Source: Escherichia coli | Lineage (GTDB): Bacteria; Pseudomonadota; Gammaproteobacteria; Enterobacterales; Enterobacteriaceae | DNA length: 64,000 nt | Assembly: GCF_003790525.1 (NCBI RefSeq) | Contig: NZ_CP033635.1 | Strand: one strand, 5' to 3' | Shown here: positions 49,438-56,995 of the stretch, in pieces | Position numbering within the stretch: position 1 is the stretch's first letter | Layout of the letters: every line of letters begins with the position of its first letter | Made by a program: the position numbers and the translations under genes | The notes under the pieces: model-generated | Told to the model about the DNA's origin: nothing | What the model saw: the letters and a program-made list of their open reading frames with translations, nothing else | The model's database searches: none

Positions 49438-51474
49438 TTAGTTCCTTACCACCAAATCTAAATCAATAGATTTTTTATTAGCATAACTTTTTAGTGCTTC
49501 ATTGAGTTCCATCTGTTTCGCACTTTCGAAGTTGCTGCCATAAAATACAACTTTGTTAGGGGCAAAGTCTTTGTCTGCATCCAGCTTTTGAAGTAAAGCT
49601 TTCAAAGCCTCACTTGTGAAATTAGGCGCAATTAGATATAGCCGACCATCGCACAAGTGTGCTTTGTAGCCATTAAGGTCAATATCTTCAATTGGTGTTG
49701 TTAGCAAGCTGCCATCATACACGCACCATGTCGTCAATAGAGTGTCATACTGCTCTGGTGTCAATACAGCATCGTCAAAGAAACTAAGATTAGAAAGCGT
49801 AAGTTCAGACTCATCTTTCACTCGAAAATTATGAACTGTTTCAAATATTTTAAATCCCAAATCTCCATTATAATTAGGATTATCTTTTTTCAGCTTTTTT
49901 CCTGCCTTAATAATTCTGTCTTTTGTTATATTGAAGATGGATTTATACCCTTCTTTATAGGCTTGTTTCTTTTTATCTGTTTCTTCATCTAATTGAACAC
50001 AGATGAAGTTTCTTTTCCTGCCGTCTTCAATATTTAACTCCAGAATACCATGAGCTGTAGTTCCAGAGCCAGCAAAAAAGTCAAGATAAATGTCTTTATC
50101 TTCGGCTTTTACTGAACCAAATAGTGTTTTTATTAAACTTGTTGGCTTCGGGTAGGAGAAATATCCTTTCCCACCAAAAAGATTTTCAACCTCAACACCA
50201 CCATCACTTTTAGTTGAAATAATTGATCTTAGTAAAAACTCTTCAACTTCATCTAAAAATTTAACCGAACTGGGTTGGGTGTTTTCTGTACTGGCAAACC
50301 AAATTCCACCACAAATAACGCTACCATCATGTAGTTTTTTGATATCTGCATACTTTCCATCTATTCTTTTTGCAATATGATTAAAAGTGCCTTCTTTCCA
50401 ACGCCAGCCTCTGTCTGGGATTTTGACAGGGTTATTAGTCAAAGGGTGCAATACTTCATACGTGGGTCCAAATGAATCTGCATTAGGCCAGCTCATATTA
50501 ATTTTACCCCATGGCCTATAATCTTCGTTCAAACAGTTGTAAAGAGTAATTCCACGATCATATCCGTTGGAGCTGTAGAATTTTTTGAGTTGCTGCTCTG
50601 CTTTATCTAATGGCACCTTCTCCTTTTTTAACTTTTCAATAAACTGATATACATCATCAATACCATCTTTCCGCATTAAAAATTCTTTACTTATTTCGTT
50701 ATTCTTCGCATAAGCAAGGATGTACTCATGGATATTACCAATACCCTTATCATTTTTAGGGATACGTTTATTCCATACAATATTTTCTATGAAATTTGCT
50801 TCGCCAAAAATTTCATCACAAATAGTTTTAAGTTGATTTAATTCATTTTCGTCAATCGAAATAAATATCACACCATCTTCACGTAGAAGCTCACGAGCAA
50901 TATATAAACGAGGATAAATGAACGTTAACCATGCGCTATGGCTGCTTGAACCATTCGTGGTAAATTCAAGTATACGTTTAGCCTCATCAAGATCGATACC
51001 TGCCAGATCAGAAAGCTGTTCAGGTGTAAACTTGCGATCATCGTTATAGGCGAATCCATCCTTACCTGTATTGTATGGTGGATCAATGTAAATCATCTTC
51101 ACCTTTTCAGAGTAAGCATTAACCATATGCTTCAATACTTCGAGGTTATCCCCTTTGATTAACAGATTCTGACTGTTTTTGTTCTCTTCACGTTGGTTAT
51201 GGTCTTTATCTTCGGAGAGTAATGTCTTCGGCGGCAAGTTAGCTAACAGACGGGCATAGGATTTACCAAGCCAGTTCAGGCTGTATGATTCTTTGGAGAG
51301 TTCAACATCCGATGATTTGACGATTTCAAGCAATTTTTCCTGAATGAACGCTCCATTTTTATCAAAACACTGTGGAAAGTTAGCCTTTAAAATCGCAAGC
51401 TGTTTACTGTTTGTGGTTTCAGTTTCAGAGAAAAGAGTTTCTTTTTTCAGTTGAAATTGGGGTTGTGTATTCAT
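49438..51474 (-). CDS. mod: Type III R-M N6-adenine methyltransferase Mod
   Basis: DPPY motif (IYIDPPYNTG) before FxGxG motif (LDFFAGSGTTAHG); N-terminus resembles EcoP15I-type Mod; GGAGGT RBS. Confidence 0.88.
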   Translation of the reverse strand: MNTQPQFQLKKETLFSETETTNSKQLAILKANFPQCFDKNGAFIQEKLLEIVKSSDVELSKESYSLNWLGKSYARLLANLPPKTLLSEDKDHNQREENKNSQNLLIKGDNLEVLKHMVNAYSEKVKMIYIDPPYNTGKDGFAYNDDRKFTPEQLSDLAGIDLDEAKRILEFTTNGSSSHSAWLTFIYPRLYIARELLREDGVIFISIDENELNQLKTICDEIFGEANFIENIVWNKRIPKNDKGIGNIHEYILAYAKNNEISKEFLMRKDGIDDVYQFIEKLKKEKVPLDKAEQQLKKFYSSNGYDRGITLYNCLNEDYRPWGKINMSWPNADSFGPTYEVLHPLTNNPVKIPDRGWRWKEGTFNHIAKRIDGKYADIKKLHDGSVICGGIWFASTENTQPSSVKFLDEVEEFLLRSIISTKSDGGVEVENLFGGKGYFSYPKPTSLIKTLFGSVKAEDKDIYLDFFAGSGTTAHGILELNIEDGRKRNFICVQLDEETDKKKQAYKEGYKSIFNITKDRIIKAGKKLKKDNPNYNGDLGFKIFETVHNFRVKDESELTLSNLSFFDDAVLTPEQYDTLLTTWCVYDGSLLTTPIEDIDLNGYKAHLCDGRLYLIAPNFTSEALKALLQKLDADKDFAPNKVVFYGSNFESAKQMELNEALKSYANKKSIDLDLVVRN

Positions 51475-51531
51475 AACGCACCTCCAGAATGCACGGAGGT
51501 ACTTGACGCGGAATTTTTATACAGGCATATT

Positions 51532-51659
51532 GTTGCGTTGCGTTGCGTTGCGTTGCGTTGCGTTGCGTTGCGTTGCGTTGCGTTGCGTTGCGTTGCGTTG
51601 CGTTGCGTTGCGTTGCGTTGCGTTGCGTTGCGTTGCGTTGCGTTGCGTTGCGTTGCGTT
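51532..51659. repeat. pentanucleotide simple-sequence repeat (GCGTT)n, ~25 copies, 58-185 nt upstream of mod start
   Basis: Read directly: uninterrupted gttgc/gcgtt tract from about 51532 to 51659. Confidence 0.95.
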
Positions 51660-51740
51660 TCATTAAATAGCCTCGAGTTTCGTTTTACAGGTTTTTATTC
51701 TAACCTGAATTGTTGATTTTCTGAATAAGTCTGACGTCAG

Positions 51741-51900
51741 TTGTTACGGGAAGGTATCAGAGTGGCTAGATGCACTGTGGCACGTCTCATGGCGGTTATG
51801 GGGCTTGCCGGCGTTCTCCGGGGGGTAAAGCTCCGTGCTACTGTCACCTGGAACGCCGTTGCCGCAGGCGACCGCGTAAACCGTCTGTACCGCCCGGGCC
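51741..51900 (+). pseudogene. IS3-family transposase fragment
   Basis: Translation REGIRVARCTVARLMAVMGL resembles IS3-family OrfB N-terminal region; no integrase core follows. Confidence 0.35.
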
Positions 51901-51940
51901 CAATATTAAGAACTAACGTCATACCAGGGACGTTGTCTGA

Positions 51941-52954
51941 ATGGATGAGAAGCTAAAACATGCGGATTTATCGTCTTTGCCAGAGCAGGTGAGGGTTGCC
52001 GCTAGGGAGCTTGTTGACCTGAAGTTTCGTATCGATATGGCAGCAAGAGGCGGTACGTCAGGGATACCACTTGACCTGCATGGGAGGATGACAGGAGGAG
52101 AATGGGGGCCGCATTGCGGGCTGGAATTTTTCTGCAGCATCATTCCTTTTTTCCCGCGAGATTTTGAAACCTGTTCAGTAACTGAAATGTTGGTTCCTAC
52201 CTTACATACCTTCGGCTGCAACTGGCGTTGGTGGCCCGATCGTTATTGTAGCGACAAAGATGAACACTATATACGGCGTCACATTTTTTCTGATTACGGG
52301 CTGAAAAGTACGAGCTATACCTTCATTCCTCAGTTGGGATTGTTCTGCCCGAGTGAAGGTAAAAATCGTGTTAACTTCTGCCGCCATCACGGTATCGAAT
52401 ATATCCCCGCACAGGTTTATTCCCATGATTACCCAGAAGCAAATCGAATCTCTGTGTACGTTCAGGATACTGCCGGAGGGCTGGATGTGTGGGCCGTTCT
52501 TGATAATCGCTATGTTCAGAAGGTTACTCACTATGCCTTTGCGCTCCCACTTTTGTGCGCTTATGGGGTAGAGTTCCCAGGTAAGTGGCCAGCAGGATGG
52601 CCATCGATATCGGACCTCCTGGCTAATCAACTGTGTTGCACTGATGACACAACCTTTCATAAACCCGTGATCGATATGCAAGCTGTCAGGGATACGCTGG
52701 ATCGTGATGAGAACAGCAGAGAGGATGGGGAGATGTATGTCAAAACCAATGTGGTTGAGCTGCCGCTGGCCGGGCTGGTTCGCTTCATTCTGATCGCAAT
52801 GTTACTGAGTTTAGGTGCGTTGTTCATCCACGAGGTACTGGATGAGGGAAGCCTGTCCAGGATTGCACTGGGAATAAGCACTTTCACGGCTGGCGTGGTT
52901 GCTTCGTTTTTTATCCCAGCGTTCCGTATCAAGAAAAAATATCTTCGCAAATAG
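51941..52954 (+). CDS. hypothetical protein with two C-terminal TM helices
   Basis: 337-aa ORF, Cys/Trp/His-rich soluble domain, hydrophobic helices near residues 280-330. Confidence 0.4.
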   Translation: MDEKLKHADLSSLPEQVRVAARELVDLKFRIDMAARGGTSGIPLDLHGRMTGGEWGPHCGLEFFCSIIPFFPRDFETCSVTEMLVPTLHTFGCNWRWWPDRYCSDKDEHYIRRHIFSDYGLKSTSYTFIPQLGLFCPSEGKNRVNFCRHHGIEYIPAQVYSHDYPEANRISVYVQDTAGGLDVWAVLDNRYVQKVTHYAFALPLLCAYGVEFPGKWPAGWPSISDLLANQLCCTDDTTFHKPVIDMQAVRDTLDRDENSREDGEMYVKTNVVELPLAGLVRFILIAMLLSLGALFIHEVLDEGSLSRIALGISTFTAGVVASFFIPAFRIKKKYLRK

Positions 52955-52974
52955 TTGTGGCATTTCTTGAACAC

Positions 52975-53224
52975 TTTTTCGAGACAGGTTCAACCGCAGG
53001 CATTCAGGCCAAACATGCGGTTAAACTACGTATTCAATTAACTGCCCTAAATATGGCTAAGCGCCCGGACGATATGTCTGTCTGCACCTAGGTGGAAATT
53101 ACACCCTCTAAAGGGAGCTGATCTTAGAGGTCATTGGGAAATATCAGTAAACTCTAACTGGCGAATTACCTTTCGATTTGAAGGCGAAGACGCAATTCTG
53201 GTTGACTATCAGGATTATCATTGA
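52975..53224 (+). pseudogene. higB: higB-like (RelE/ParE superfamily) toxin remnant, frameshifted
   Basis: C-terminal frame reads KLHPLKGADLRGHWEISVNSNWRITFRFEGEDAILVDYQDYH*; N-terminal part in another frame, no intact start. Confidence 0.5.
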
Positions 53225-53232
53225 GGGATAAC

Positions 53233-53975
53233 TGAACCGCCCCGGGAATCCTGGAGACTAAACTCCCTGATAAAGAGGTAAACAGAATGGCTAAAAATAC
53301 TCGTTTTTCCCCCGAAGTCCGTCAGAGGGCGATTCGTATGGTTCTGGAAAGTCAGGGCGAATATGACTCACAGTGGGCGGCAATTTGTTCCATTGCCCCA
53401 AAGATTGGCTGTACACCGGAGACTCTGCGTGTCTGGGTACGCCAGCATGAGCGGGATACCGGAGGCGGTGATGGCGGGCTCACCACCGCTGAACGTCAGC
53501 GTCTGAAAGAGCTGGAACGTGAAAATCGTGAACTGCGCCGCATCGTCTATGGAAACGACATTCGTGCTGGATGCTCTGGAGCAGGCGTTATGGGCCCGTC
53601 GACCGTCCGGCACAGTCCATCACAGTGATAAAGGTTCTCAGTATGTATCGCTGGCCTACACAGCGGCTTAAGGAAGCCGGATTACTGGCATCAACAGGAA
53701 GTACTGGTGACTCGTATGACAACGCGATGGCGGAGAGCATCAATGGCCTTTACAAAGCGGAGGTAATACACCGTAAGAGCTGGAAAAACCGGACAGAAGT
53801 GGAGCTGGCCACACTCACGTGGGTGGACTGGTCTAACAATCGACGATTGCTGGAAAGGCTGGGCCATATCCCACCGGCAGAAGCAGAAAAAGCTTATTAT
53901 GCTTCCATCGGAAACGATGATCTGGCAGCCTGAGTTCACAGATAAAACACTCTCCAGGAAACCCGGGGCGGTTCA
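53233..53975 (+). mobile_element. IS629/IS1203-like (IS3 family) element remnant with internal deletion
   Basis: Left IR TGAACCGCCCCGGGAATCCTGGAGACTAAACTCCCTGA at 53233; orfA 5' part joined to orfB 3' part; imperfect right IR ending 53975; flanked by AAC direct repeats. Confidence 0.7.
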
Positions 53976-53979
53976 AACT

Positions 53980-54188
53980 ATGAGTCGTATTCATAATCCC
54001 GCCACTCAGGCGCGGTTCTTCGTGAAGATCTGGGAGATATGTCAGTCACAGACGCTGCCACCGCATTGGGCATTACTCGCACGGCGCTTTCCCGGATTCT
54101 GAACGAAAAAGCGGGTATTTCTGCGGATATGGCGCTCCGTCTGGAATCAGCACTCGGAACCAGCGCCGAAATGTGGACAGGTATGTAA
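53980..54188 (+). pseudogene. higA: higA-like HTH antitoxin remnant
   Basis: ATG 53980 (MSRIHNP) then frame change into ...AVLREDLGDMSVTDAATALGITRTALSRILNEKAGISADMALRLESALGTSAEMW. Confidence 0.4.
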
Positions 54189-54379
54189 TCACAGTATGAG
54201 CTTTGGGTTGCTTCGCAAACTGCTCGCCCAAACATTCGCCCATTATTTCACCATGCCTGACATGCATTCCCCAACATTGGACGGGGAGCCGTCATGGAGG
54301 GGGCTACGCAGGAACCGCCGAAAGCACGCTGTTTTATATTTGTTTTATTGAATATAAGAGGAGGCCATAAAACGGCCCC

Positions 54380-54720
54380 CTTGTTTTTATCAGAAAGAGT
54401 AACGGAAGCTGGCGTTCACCGCGTTATCCACGTTGTACTTACCAAATGCCGATTTCTCAAACTCCAGACCAAAGCGGAGATTATCGCGAATTTCTGCATT
54501 CAGACCAACATTCATGAGCATACGTCCGTCTTTCTCGCCTTTGATGCGTTTTTCACCAGAGGCATCGCGCGGAACGGTTTCACTGTTTGCCAGAATGTCA
54601 AACTGGTAACCGAGGCCGGCACGGGCAGTGACTTTCCAGTCCTTACCAGAGAAGGTTTTACCGACATCGATACCGGTACGGCCAATCAGCGGGTTGAAGT
54701 CCTTTCTGGTGTGAGAACCT
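54380..54720 (-). pseudogene. flu: antigen 43 (autotransporter) C-terminal beta-barrel fragment
   Basis: Reverse translation ...KDFNPLIGRTGIDVGKTFSGKDWKVTARAGLGYQFDILANS...NAVNASFRYSF*; in-frame stop at upstream junction 54721. Confidence 0.6.
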
Positions 54721-54869
54721 TAAGGAAATCGTCCGCAGCCCCATTACCGTCTTATATCACTGGCGCTGACATGTATTATCCGGGGAGTTAAGTCTGTCGA
54801 TGTCCGACAGACTTTTGATAATGGAAACAACATGCAGCGATAATGTGCATGCTGTTTTGCAGGTGGAAC

Positions 54870-56072
54870 TCAGAAGGTGAACTGCAACTGTGCGACCGCA
54901 CCGTAAGTGTTGTCCGTGCCGATCAGGCCTGCCACATCAAGGTGAACCACATCAAACGGTGAGATACCAACCCCGGCCGTGAATGCACTGCCGTTGTTGC
55001 TGGCCAGATTCTGGCGGTAACCGGTACGTAACTGTGCCCATTTCCAGGCATTAAACTCAGCACCAACGGCGGCAAACTGACGTTTGCTGTCTGATGTGAA
55101 GCCGCTGGCCGGGGTCAGATCCACATCCAGTGCCGTGGTGAACATGTCGTTGTGCCATGATACGCCGGTCGTTACCTGCGGACGGATCCTGAAGGTTTCA
55201 GTGACACCATGTACCTCTTTGGTCTCAATGCTGCGTGGGATCAGGTTTTGTGCGACCAGACCCAGCGTCCAGTTGTCATCCAGGTCCATGCTGGCACCGA
55301 TATCAGCGTTAATACCGTTTTGGGTGTTGTGGTAACGGTTACCTTTGAATGCGCTGCTGTCATAGTTTTTGATCAGCGTATTGTAGTTAAACAGGTCAAC
55401 ACGCTGGAATTTTGGTGTGAAGCCCAGTGACCATTTTTGTCCGGCCGTTTCCAGTTCAGTGGCCAGCGCAACGCCCACATCGGTGATCAGTGCGGCACGG
55501 GCAAAAGCCTGTGAGGTCAGTCTGTTTTTATCCACATCCTGGCTGCCACTGTCTGCAATGCTTTCCAGATAGTTCAGGTCGGCATCGCTGACTTTACCGT
55601 CGACGCTGACAGTCCCGAACGTTTTCAGCATCAGTGCAGCAGCGAGGGTATCACCGGGAAGGGCCGCCACAGCAGATACCCCGGCCTGTGCGCTGGCATG
55701 GGTGTTCCGGAAGTCCTGCAGTCTCTCTTTCAGGCGGGCCGCTGTCTGCGGTACCCCGGAGTGGCTGTCGACGGCACGGTCGAAGGCTTTCCAGTCATCG
55801 CTGATTTTGTCGGCGTTGTCGGCGATATTACCCGGATCGGACAGCTGCGCACCCACGGACGGAAGCAGAAGACTGAAGTCATCTTTTGCACCGGATTTTG
55901 TCAGCAGTGCCGGGTTTGCCAGTGGGGCCACACCATAGTGAGAGGAGGCAACCCCCGTTCCTCCCATCGCATCATTGCGGGCTTCAAAATATGACGTTGC
56001 TGCAGTCGAATTAAAGGAAAATAAAACGGCAGACGCGATGAGAGTACGGGTAATATGCTTTTTCATCATCAT
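54870..56072 (-). CDS. outer-membrane beta-barrel protein (TraF_2/FadL-like, putative)
   Basis: Signal peptide; C-terminal aromatic end QLQFTF. Confidence 0.45.
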   Translation of the reverse strand: MMMKKHITRTLIASAVLFSFNSTAATSYFEARNDAMGGTGVASSHYGVAPLANPALLTKSGAKDDFSLLLPSVGAQLSDPGNIADNADKISDDWKAFDRAVDSHSGVPQTAARLKERLQDFRNTHASAQAGVSAVAALPGDTLAAALMLKTFGTVSVDGKVSDADLNYLESIADSGSQDVDKNRLTSQAFARAALITDVGVALATELETAGQKWSLGFTPKFQRVDLFNYNTLIKNYDSSAFKGNRYHNTQNGINADIGASMDLDDNWTLGLVAQNLIPRSIETKEVHGVTETFRIRPQVTTGVSWHNDMFTTALDVDLTPASGFTSDSKRQFAAVGAEFNAWKWAQLRTGYRQNLASNNGSAFTAGVGISPFDVVHLDVAGLIGTDNTYGAVAQLQFTF

Positions 56073-56173
56073 TTCAGTTTCCTGTATTGAGGTATTTTGG
56101 GTATAACAACAGAGGGCACGGCTGTGCCATTAAAAATAGTTGGTGTATTATTCCGGTTTGTTGCTCAGTATTA

Positions 56174-56995
56174 TTACCAGGGGGATAACGGAACCCTGAA
56201 TAACGCAGTGGGTAATATTTTTCCTGTTATCAGATATTCTGCCTGTGCCGGAGTGAGTGTTACGGCGCGAACAGGGATATCCGGAGATATTTTTCGGGCC
56301 ATCTGAAACCAGCCTTCTTTTTCTATATCCATTCTGACCGGATATAACGAAAGTACCGGATAAATAATGGTGTTATTAATTTCTTTTTTCTGCCTGAGCA
56401 GAACGCCGCAATATTCTCCGGAATGCGTTCCGGCAAACGGAAAACCATGCCAGAGAATAATGTCCATATTCTCGCGGGCTGAAATAATCCTGCAGAATAT
56501 CTCCTGTGTGGCTGGCCAGTCTCCCGGACGATACAGTGGATAATGCACCCTGCCGTTCAGCCATTCCGGACTGAGATAAAACCAGTCAGCCAGTGCTGCA
56601 AGAATCTCCCCGCTCAGATAGTCAGTGAGTCTGTCCGGCTCCCGGAAGACGGCAGGGCGGATATTCCAGGGGGCCAGTAATGCAGCCATCGTTGTTGCGC
56701 TGATATCATGTGCCTGCATGATGTGCTCCATCCTGCTGAGAAGACGGCGGACGATGTTATCTGCAGGAAGAAACATTTCACTTAACGCGTCTTCGACCAG
56801 GATACGCGTCAGGTCAGAGACGGAAAGAGAAAGCTGTTCGCTCATGATACCAAGGGCATCCCTGACTCCCTGCGGATAACGAACCTGCAGGGGTGTGGAC
56901 TGCAGCTGGCGATGACTGAGCAGGCATTCGCAAATTCGCTCCCTGTCCAGGGAGAGCATCATACGGGCGGCAATACCTGTGCTGTCAGTTTTCAT
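56174..56995 (-). CDS. hypothetical protein downstream of rci
   Basis: 273-aa ORF on same strand as the pil operon. Confidence 0.4.
   Translation of the reverse strand: MKTDSTGIAARMMLSLDRERICECLLSHRQLQSTPLQVRYPQGVRDALGIMSEQLSLSVSDLTRILVEDALSEMFLPADNIVRRLLSRMEHIMQAHDISATTMAALLAPWNIRPAVFREPDRLTDYLSGEILAALADWFYLSPEWLNGRVHYPLYRPGDWPATQEIFCRIISARENMDIILWHGFPFAGTHSGEYCGVLLRQKKEINNTIIYPVLSLYPVRMDIEKEGWFQMARKISPDIPVRAVTLTPAQAEYLITGKILPTALFRVPLSPW

Follow-up and report, generated by a model that had tools for sequence, protein, structure and literature searches.

A dead higBA module, an internally deleted IS629 and a SPATE–IS21 fusion in the cargo of an Escherichia coli integrative and conjugative element

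The cargo interval and its toxin–antitoxin pseudogenes

In a 64,000-nucleotide stretch of Escherichia coli contig NZ_CP033635.1 (assembly GCF_003790525.1; hereafter “the window”), we analyzed a short interval in which a broken higBA toxin–antitoxin module, an internally deleted IS629-like insertion sequence (IS) and the 3′ end of an autotransporter gene lie side by side (Table 1). By annotation, the locus is cargo of an integrative and conjugative element (ICE), with an operon for type III restriction and modification (R-M) on one side and traF on the other, and the ICE encodes a type IVb pilus, a PilV shufflon, TraG, a TraI-domain protein and tyrosine recombinases; its host is an avian-pathogenic-like E. 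coli. A sequence-only reading had described the place as a decayed cargo junction, which the pseudogenes, deleted IS and gene remnants reported here bear out: the interval at 51.7–54.8 kb is accreted and eroded cargo, the outcome of ordinary mosaic decay.

The comparison set consisted of 5426 complete E. coli genomes, searched by megablast with positions 52900–54800, and PLSDB served as the plasmid set. The whole interval is present at 99.8% identity in six of these genomes, all from chicken or avian-pathogenic E. coli (APEC) isolates of Brazil, Korea, Japan and elsewhere, and the same interval minus the IS is present in two human Shiga toxin-producing E. coli (STEC) genomes, which supply the uninterrupted (“empty”) site and of which strain 2015C-3121 (L001) is used below. 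Further comparisons rest on the STEC plasmid pCFSAN004181P (L004), which carries an intact higBA, on plasmid NZ_CP029742 (L003), which carries an intact 1310-bp IS629 isoform at L003:1512-2821, and on a related ICE of strain 2013C-3033 (L014). One could suspect the mosaic of being an assembly artefact, i.e., a set of collapsed or chimeric joins at repeated IS sequence, given that IS-rich regions are prone to misassembly and that a 2-bp loss in an (AC)n run and one or two single-nucleotide differences private to the window could be sequencing errors. Yet six independent complete genomes share the structure at 99.8% identity and two more share it minus the IS, and we consider the chance of an artefact negligible.

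Table 1. Positions of the features described at the locus (window coordinates).
Feature	Position	Strand	Description
(GTTGC)x25.6 pentanucleotide tract	51532-51659		Perfect; coding strand reads (GCAAC)n
Internal IS629-family fragment	51727-51888	+	IS positions 586-747; no ends
337-aa open reading frame	51941-52954	+	Intact; hydrophobic C-terminal region; stop 11 bp before higB homology
higB pseudogene	52966-53224	+	5′-truncated; native TGA 53222-53224; aligned to the pCFSAN004181P (L004) and 2015C-3121 (L001) sequences
Target-site duplication AAC, left copy	53230-53232		Single AAC in the empty site
mini-IS629, non-autonomous IS629 derivative	53233-53975	+	743 bp; from alignment to intact and annotated IS629
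Left inverted repeat	53233-53257		25 nt; opens with TGAACCGCCCCGGG at 53233
orfA′ open reading frame	53287-53628		113 aa; 84-85 initial OrfA codons retained; HTH_Tnp_1 (Pfam)
Right inverted repeat	53951-53975		25 nt; reverse complement of the left arm; ends at 53975
Target-site duplication AAC, right copy	53976-53978
higA pseudogene	53980-54260	+	ATG 53980; original TGA 54258-54260; from alignment
Orphan SPATE (S6 serine-protease autotransporter) 3′ fragment	54390-54704	-	Stop 54390-54392 plus the last 104 complete codons
IS21-family left-end remnant	54699-54771	-	73 bp; outer terminus TGTCAGCGCC at 54771, interior toward lower coordinates

Both hig genes, labeled pseudogenes in RefSeq, are recognizable once repaired. 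Pfam scans, made on repaired translations here and for the IS, return PF05015 HigB-like_toxin (E=5e-15) for higB and HTH_3 (E=8e-10) for higA. Intact higBA pairs are found on large E. coli plasmids at 85–92% identity (sensitive blastn with the IS removed); the pair on pCFSAN004181P, a 93-aa HigB and a 93-aa HigA, is 92% identical to that of the window, its HigB matching PF05015 and the Proteus vulgaris Rts1 HigB (PDB 4mct, E=1e-22) and its HigA matching TIGR02607 antidote_HigA (E=1.4e-28). The remnant keeps the toxin-first order and the 8–9 bp spacer of type II HigBA modules of the Rts1 type; unlike them, both its genes are pseudogenes, the promoter and about nine higB codons are gone and the spacer is split by the IS. 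On pCFSAN004181P, the intact cassette (L004 780-1755) lies ~140 bp downstream of a truncated IS21-family (ISEc10) istB, so that higBA of this type has IS21-family elements next to it in more than one replicon.

The lesions can be placed to the base. Homology to higB opens at codon 10 of the 93-codon intact homologue, at the same point in the alignment with every intact higB, and where the start codon and promoter/operator should lie stands the 3′ end of an unrelated open reading frame (ORF) of 337 aa. A tandem TGTC duplication (53075-53082) then shifts the frame by +4, a TAG at 53089-53091 occurs in the IS-bearing lineage only, and the higB-like frame ends in ...NWRITFRFEGEDAILVDYQDYH and TGA, 8 bp from the left IS end. 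The higA ATG follows 4 bp past the right IS end; the gene has lost a single G between 54002 and 54003 (codon 8), and codon 70 of its 93, at 54186-54188, has turned from CAA into the stop TAA. The sequence-only reading had both of these distances to the IS essentially right and had called both genes disrupted, with which the alignment to intact higBA agrees (higB frameshifted; higA frameshifted and prematurely stopped), although the 5′ truncation of higB did not figure in it.

It had further attributed inactivation of the module to the IS, and here the empty-site genomes point the other way. In a three-way alignment, four lesions (loss of the higB 5′ end, the TGTC duplication, the G deletion and the TAA) are present in them as well. 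Because all four occur without the IS, the IS did not inactivate higBA; the module was dead beforehand.

Structure and spread of the deleted IS629

The element between the two genes, which we call mini-IS629, retains both IS629 ends—the only two in the window—as inverted repeats that are 92% complementary and terminate in TG...CA. It shares 741 of 743 nt with the intact copy on NZ_CP029742, its closest intact relative, annotated as an IS3-family transposase (orfA/orfB) with a programmed frameshift and an ALIL pseudoknot, and 711 of 743 (95.7%) with annotated IS629. Its termini are those of the LC567824 element that bears the annotation “insertion sequence: IS3 family IS629,” and the left terminal 32 nt and right ~70 nt are identical to annotated IS629. 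The intact parent isoform is itself 95.5% identical to annotated IS629 (1251/1310) and, over its full length, 95.4–95.8% identical to deposited IS629 elements of Stx phages. ISfinder treats elements of at least 90% nucleotide identity as isoforms, a threshold that mini-IS629 clears at 95.7%, and the earlier IS629-like assignment holds.

Relative to the 1310-bp parent, 567 bp are missing, in keeping with the central loss of ~570 bp estimated before. These comprise 565 bp (IS positions 309-873), with the deletion junction at 53540-53543 and a CA microhomology at 53541-53542, plus an AC dinucleotide from an (AC)n run after 53657. The large deletion takes the 3′ end of orfA, the frameshift site with its pseudoknot and most of the orfB catalytic region, leaving a shortened orfA′ and an orfB 3′ part that keeps the rve_3 C-terminus (Pfam). 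Consistent with the position of the ALIL pseudoknot of the intact copy inside the deleted part, an Rfam scan of 50500-56500 at E<=0.1 returned no matches, neither to this pseudoknot nor to other non-coding RNAs. Judged by its ends and identities, then, the element is an IS629-isoform derivative with intact termini rather than an autonomous member. It resembles IS629 (IS3 family; isoforms IS1203 and IS3411; 1310 bp) in its TG...CA ends and 3-bp target duplication, and differs in that it cannot encode a transposase and is found as a non-autonomous derivative at several sites.

The insertion point is fixed by the uninterrupted locus. In strain 2015C-3121 the sequence runs from ...CATTGAGGGATAAC directly into TATGAGTCGT (in brief, GGGATAAC followed by TATGAG in the empty-site genomes), with one AAC. 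Because the empty site has a single AAC, the AAC on each side of the IS is a true 3-bp target duplication, as had been proposed, and the insertion comprises exactly 53233-53975. The annotated IS629 copy in LC567824 also carries a 3-bp duplication, and IS629 target duplications are 3–4 bp long without a target consensus (PMC3271280). The intact isoform on NZ_CP029742 likewise sits between AAC and AAC (L003 1501-1511, 2822-2824), with similar 11-mers upstream (TGAGTGAAAAC at L003 1501-1511 vs. TGAGGGATAAC at 53222-53232 of the window), which could reflect a weak target preference or coincidence.

The deletion junction is far from private to this locus. A 72-bp probe spanning it (53506-53577; E-value limit set to exclude half-matches) matched unbroken in 113 records, which belong to 107 of the 5426 genomes, 102 of the records being plasmids and 11 chromosomes, and in 68 PLSDB plasmids, 4 of them from Klebsiella. 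Plasmids of the ColV/IncF type, ~190 kb in size, from avian or extraintestinal pathogenic strains account for most matches. With both inverted repeats, the element was extracted at five distinct sites: the ICE higB/higA spacer of the window (flanks AAC/AAC; 743 bp); the chromosomes of IMT5155 and DE17, between nanE-like and lysozyme-inhibitor genes (CTC/CTC); the chromosome of strain 1517k, inside malS (TAC/TAC); a ColV-type plasmid locus between nikB′ and ISEc43′ (TAC/TAT); and the 5.7-kb ColE1-like plasmid pEC332_05 (GTT/GTA). The copies at the last four sites are 745 bp long. Perfect 3-bp duplications (AAC, CTC, TAC) are present at three of the five sites, and the empty site was verified for two, i.e., higBA in 2015C-3121 and malS in K-12, where no IS interrupts the gene and TAC occurs once at the 1517k insertion point. 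The six RefSeq copies in the ICE are also 745 bp long, the AC loss being private to the window; the window copy further differs from them by an A-to-G change at 53290 (orfA′ codon 2) and, in one comparison, by an A-to-C change at 53833. Unless these differences are sequencing errors, the window does not come from any of those six genomes.

Since the same deletion junction occurs at five or more unrelated sites with their own target duplications, mini-IS629 most likely reached the higBA locus already deleted, as a 745-bp non-autonomous element. It was probably mobilized in trans by the IS629 transposase of another copy: with neither the frameshift region nor the initial catalytic part of OrfB left, it would depend on transposase supplied in this way. 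The order implied earlier, insertion followed by loss of the center, is on the same grounds probably wrong. That earlier scenario, taken whole, has a full-length IS629 entering a working higBA, helping to inactivate it and losing ~570 bp in place, next to the 3′ end of an antigen 43 (Ag43; flu) gene. The structure of this one locus (intact ends, AAC duplication, a single internal deletion) is compatible with loss in place. But every disabling higBA lesion is already carried by the empty-site genomes, the identical junction recurs in 107 genomes at several sites with separate duplications, megablast of the 5426 E. coli genomes showed none with a full-length IS629 at the higB/higA site, and the supposed Ag43 fragment resembles EspP and not K-12 Flu (below). 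We therefore hold this scenario to be very unlikely.

As in MITE-like derivatives (miniature inverted-repeat transposable elements) that are mobilized in trans, both inverted repeats of mini-IS629 are intact, no transposase is encoded and the same deletion occurs at multiple unrelated sites, with flanking 3-bp duplications of the kind that the parent IS makes. Unlike classical MITEs, it is larger (745 bp) and keeps a truncated orfA, and it departs from MITE-like derivatives in that only about five distinct sites were seen, most copies lying at one ColV-plasmid locus through plasmid inheritance and not transposition. We lean, by a little, toward a broader view in which mini-IS629 is a distinct non-autonomous family that is mobile today, resides mainly on ColV-type virulence plasmids of APEC and extraintestinal pathogenic E. 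coli (ExPEC), and has been trans-mobilized into chromosomes (malS, the intergenic site in the nanE region, the ICE higBA spacer) and small ColE1-like plasmids, with the 113-aa OrfA′ perhaps acting as a trans-dominant IS629 regulator. A literature search, with ISfinder outside its scope, found no described IS629 deletion derivative of this kind; that the “remnant” is probably a dispersed, trans-mobilized mini-IS629 is the mildly new part of these results.

No part of the interval is expected to have a function, OrfA′ being the possible exception. A more generous view would let some of the debris work, either a 49-aa higA′ ORF (54039-54188, which keeps the HTH) as an anti-addiction or repressor peptide, or OrfA′ as a trans-acting regulator of IS629 transposition. 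Both ORFs are open, and OrfA′ keeps HTH_Tnp_1, is conserved in all copies examined and is annotated as a protein in RefSeq (WP_001442106.1). Against this, deletion of the higBA promoter region leaves the higA′ ORF without a promoter, and it also lacks the C-terminal third; substitutions are too few for a measurable signal of selection; and some of the OrfA C-terminus, which to judge from IS911 forms a leucine zipper, is missing from OrfA′. On balance, function of this sort seems quite unlikely.

The autotransporter fragment and its IS21-family boundary

Downstream of higA lies the 3′ end of an autotransporter gene, which had been assigned to Ag43. Comparison with flu does not sustain this: by BLASTP, the best match of the fragment to K-12 Flu has E = 54, and no Ag43 is among its E. 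coli or plasmid matches. Instead, it matches the beta-domain of EspP (PDB 2qom) with E=2.5e-60, as well as Hbp with E=7.9e-39, and the nearest plasmid genes, annotated pet or “S6 family peptidase,” share 85–90% nucleotide identity with it. Its closest full-length homologue is a 1307-aa plasmid protein (L007) with the extended signal peptide of serine protease autotransporters of Enterobacteriaceae (SPATEs) and a GDSGS motif, to whose codons 1204-1307 the fragment corresponds with 97 of 104 residues identical (93%). Generic autotransporter models (PF03797, TIGR01414) match as well, and Ag43 is, like the fragment, a type Va protein with a C-terminal beta-barrel; the C-terminal motifs differ, ...NASFRYSF in the fragment vs. 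...QATLNVTF in Flu. By homology, the piece is a SPATE beta-barrel C-terminus and not Ag43. Its last 104–105 residues are ~91–93% identical to EspP and the 1307-aa SPATE, members of a family (EspP, Pet, Hbp/Tsh; S6) from whose full-length proteins it differs in lacking signal peptide, protease and passenger domain. As only the C-terminal 8% of the gene is left, the specific SPATE cannot be named.

The length and the end of the fragment also needed correction. In place of the 113 aa given before, DNA homology covers 104 codons (54393-54704), the phmmer match to EspP reaches 105 residues and the open frame has 109 codons (minus strand, 54719-54393). The in-frame stop that had been placed at the junction, TAA 54720-54722, belongs to foreign sequence: SPATE DNA homology ends at 54704 in every comparison, including all of the plasmid matches, and the stop sits 16 bp past the true breakpoint (54699-54704), within the end of an IS21-family element.

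This second IS remnant (IS21/ISEc10-like) consists of the left terminal region and terminus, with nothing left of istA, istB or the right end; the cut falls just upstream of the expected istA start and, from 54698 downward, the SPATE fragment stands in place of the IS21 interior. Positions 54699-54728 and 54743-54771 match the region upstream of istA in the IS21 of L009, in which a truncated umuC begins exactly at the same IS21 terminus, and the internal part is a hybrid of two IS21 end variants (the L009 type and the L010/L011 type). Homology to the ICE backbone of strain 2013C-3033 restarts exactly at 54772. The SPATE fragment and the IS21 end overlap in a 6-bp microhomology, GTCCTT (54699-54704), which points to a microhomology-mediated deletion of istAB and ~1200 SPATE codons. 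To the earlier account of the junction are added this 73-bp IS21 left end and the IS629 fragment at 51727-51888, neither of which it contained.

The ICE of strain 2013C-3033 keeps another SPATE piece (codons ~1135-1185), adjacent to and not overlapping that of the window; the two are complementary parts of a single ancestral gene, and both ICEs therefore go back to an ancestor with a larger SPATE gene.

Order of events, neighboring features and meaning

Taken together, we favor, with considerable confidence, a reading of the locus as mosaic decay in which higBA died first, a pre-deleted mini-IS629 arrived later, and SPATE and IS21 sequences were fused through microhomology. In this model, (1) a plasmid-type higBA cassette and a SPATE gene would have been present as cargo; (2) at 54771/54772, directly downstream of traF, an IS21-family element would have inserted; (3) GTCCTT would have mediated an illegitimate deletion that joined the IS21 leader, at a point just short of istA, to SPATE codon 1204, removing the IS21 body and ~1200 SPATE codons; (4) higBA would have decayed through its four lesions; (5) a pre-existing 745-bp deleted IS629 would have entered the 8-bp higB–higA spacer and duplicated AAC; and (6) the window copy would then have lost the AC. 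What was observed directly is the full set of breakpoints, the AAC duplication, the lesions common to genomes with and without the IS, and the deletion junction at several loci; the order of steps 1–4 and mobilization in trans we infer.

Several observations weigh against this model. The order of its first four steps is not fixed, as no genome in the collection holds an intermediate. The ~119-bp spacer between the end of higBA homology and the SPATE end (54269-54387) matches only the same locus, in 8 related genomes. At two of the five sites, the ColV plasmid with TAC/TAT and pEC332_05 with GTT/GTA, the duplications are not perfect, and these copies may have undergone rearrangement or arrived by another path. 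Transposases of the IS3 family are generally regarded as acting preferentially in cis. Finally, the 745-bp element comes in two sequence subtypes, 6 positions apart, which means that it either diversified once deleted or was altered by gene conversion from full-length copies.

Gene conversion is indeed the main alternative to transposition of the deleted element: full-length IS629 copies would have inserted independently, the 565-bp deletion would then have spread from one copy (e.g., on a ColV plasmid) by homologous recombination or gene conversion, and the deleted element itself would never have transposed. The two subtypes fit this, and a donor is at hand, as strains E19035 and TUM1886, which carry the ICE copy, also carry a ColV/IncF plasmid copy. 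However, conversion calls for two events per site instead of one, the IMT5155 and 1517k chromosomal copies equal the ColV copy at every variable position found—as direct transposition predicts—and the higBA site has no full-length occupant in any genome compared. Accordingly, we rate conversion as unlikely and retain transposition of an already deleted element as the better explanation.

Other parts of the cargo show similar wear. An internal piece of IS629 (51727-51888; Table 1) is 90% identical to annotated IS629 over 162 bp and matches the NZ_CP029742 isoform at 140/162 positions; it is also present in the empty-site genome of 2015C-3121 and in the ICE of strain 2013C-3033, where the IS629 fragment breaks off at IS position 650 and runs straight into the SPATE codons mentioned above (L014 9388-9602). 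This piece, whose IS positions fall within the span deleted from mini-IS629, was considered as the missing center of that element and ruled out, given its 140/162 match to the parent isoform and its presence in genomes without mini-IS629. The adjacent 337-aa ORF has no Pfam, NCBIfam or PADLOC match and was found in 8 of the 5426 complete genomes, always here, between the R-M operon and higB′. On the far side of the junction, traF (TraF_2 family, 400 aa; 54870-56072, minus strand) is intact in the window, and in the empty-site STEC genome (L001 5226-6338) it is N-terminally truncated by IS1A, so that decay on that side was independent in the two lineages.

Beyond these remnants, the perfect pentanucleotide tract, (GCAAC)n on the coding strand, lies 58 bp upstream of the start of the type III R-M gene mod (ATG 51474, minus strand). 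Its length varies among 8 related genomes, mostly by multiples of 5 bp. A leader ATG at 51663 ahead of the tract opens a 48-aa MK(RNATQ)n ORF, which in one frame would end at a TGA overlapping the mod ATG (ATGA); mod has its own GGAGG. A location of the tract inside the mod ORF, as in classical phasevarions, was rejected, as no frame leads from the tract into mod. The repeat is unlike the in-ORF CAGCGAC[n] of a published STEC mod (PMC5909438) and is a candidate for phase-variable control of mod expression by a simple sequence repeat.

For biology in general the locus carries little weight; it illustrates step by step the accretion and erosion of ICE cargo, and its analysis corrects a likely mis-annotation of a SPATE fragment as Ag43. 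Of wider use is the lesson that an internally deleted IS with perfect ends should not be presumed to have decayed in place, since this alters the order of events that one would infer. The presence or absence of the IS in the dead higBA gives a relative dating within the ICE lineage, and the 72-bp junction can conveniently flag ColV-type plasmids as well as recent movement of the IS from plasmids to chromosomes in APEC/ExPEC.

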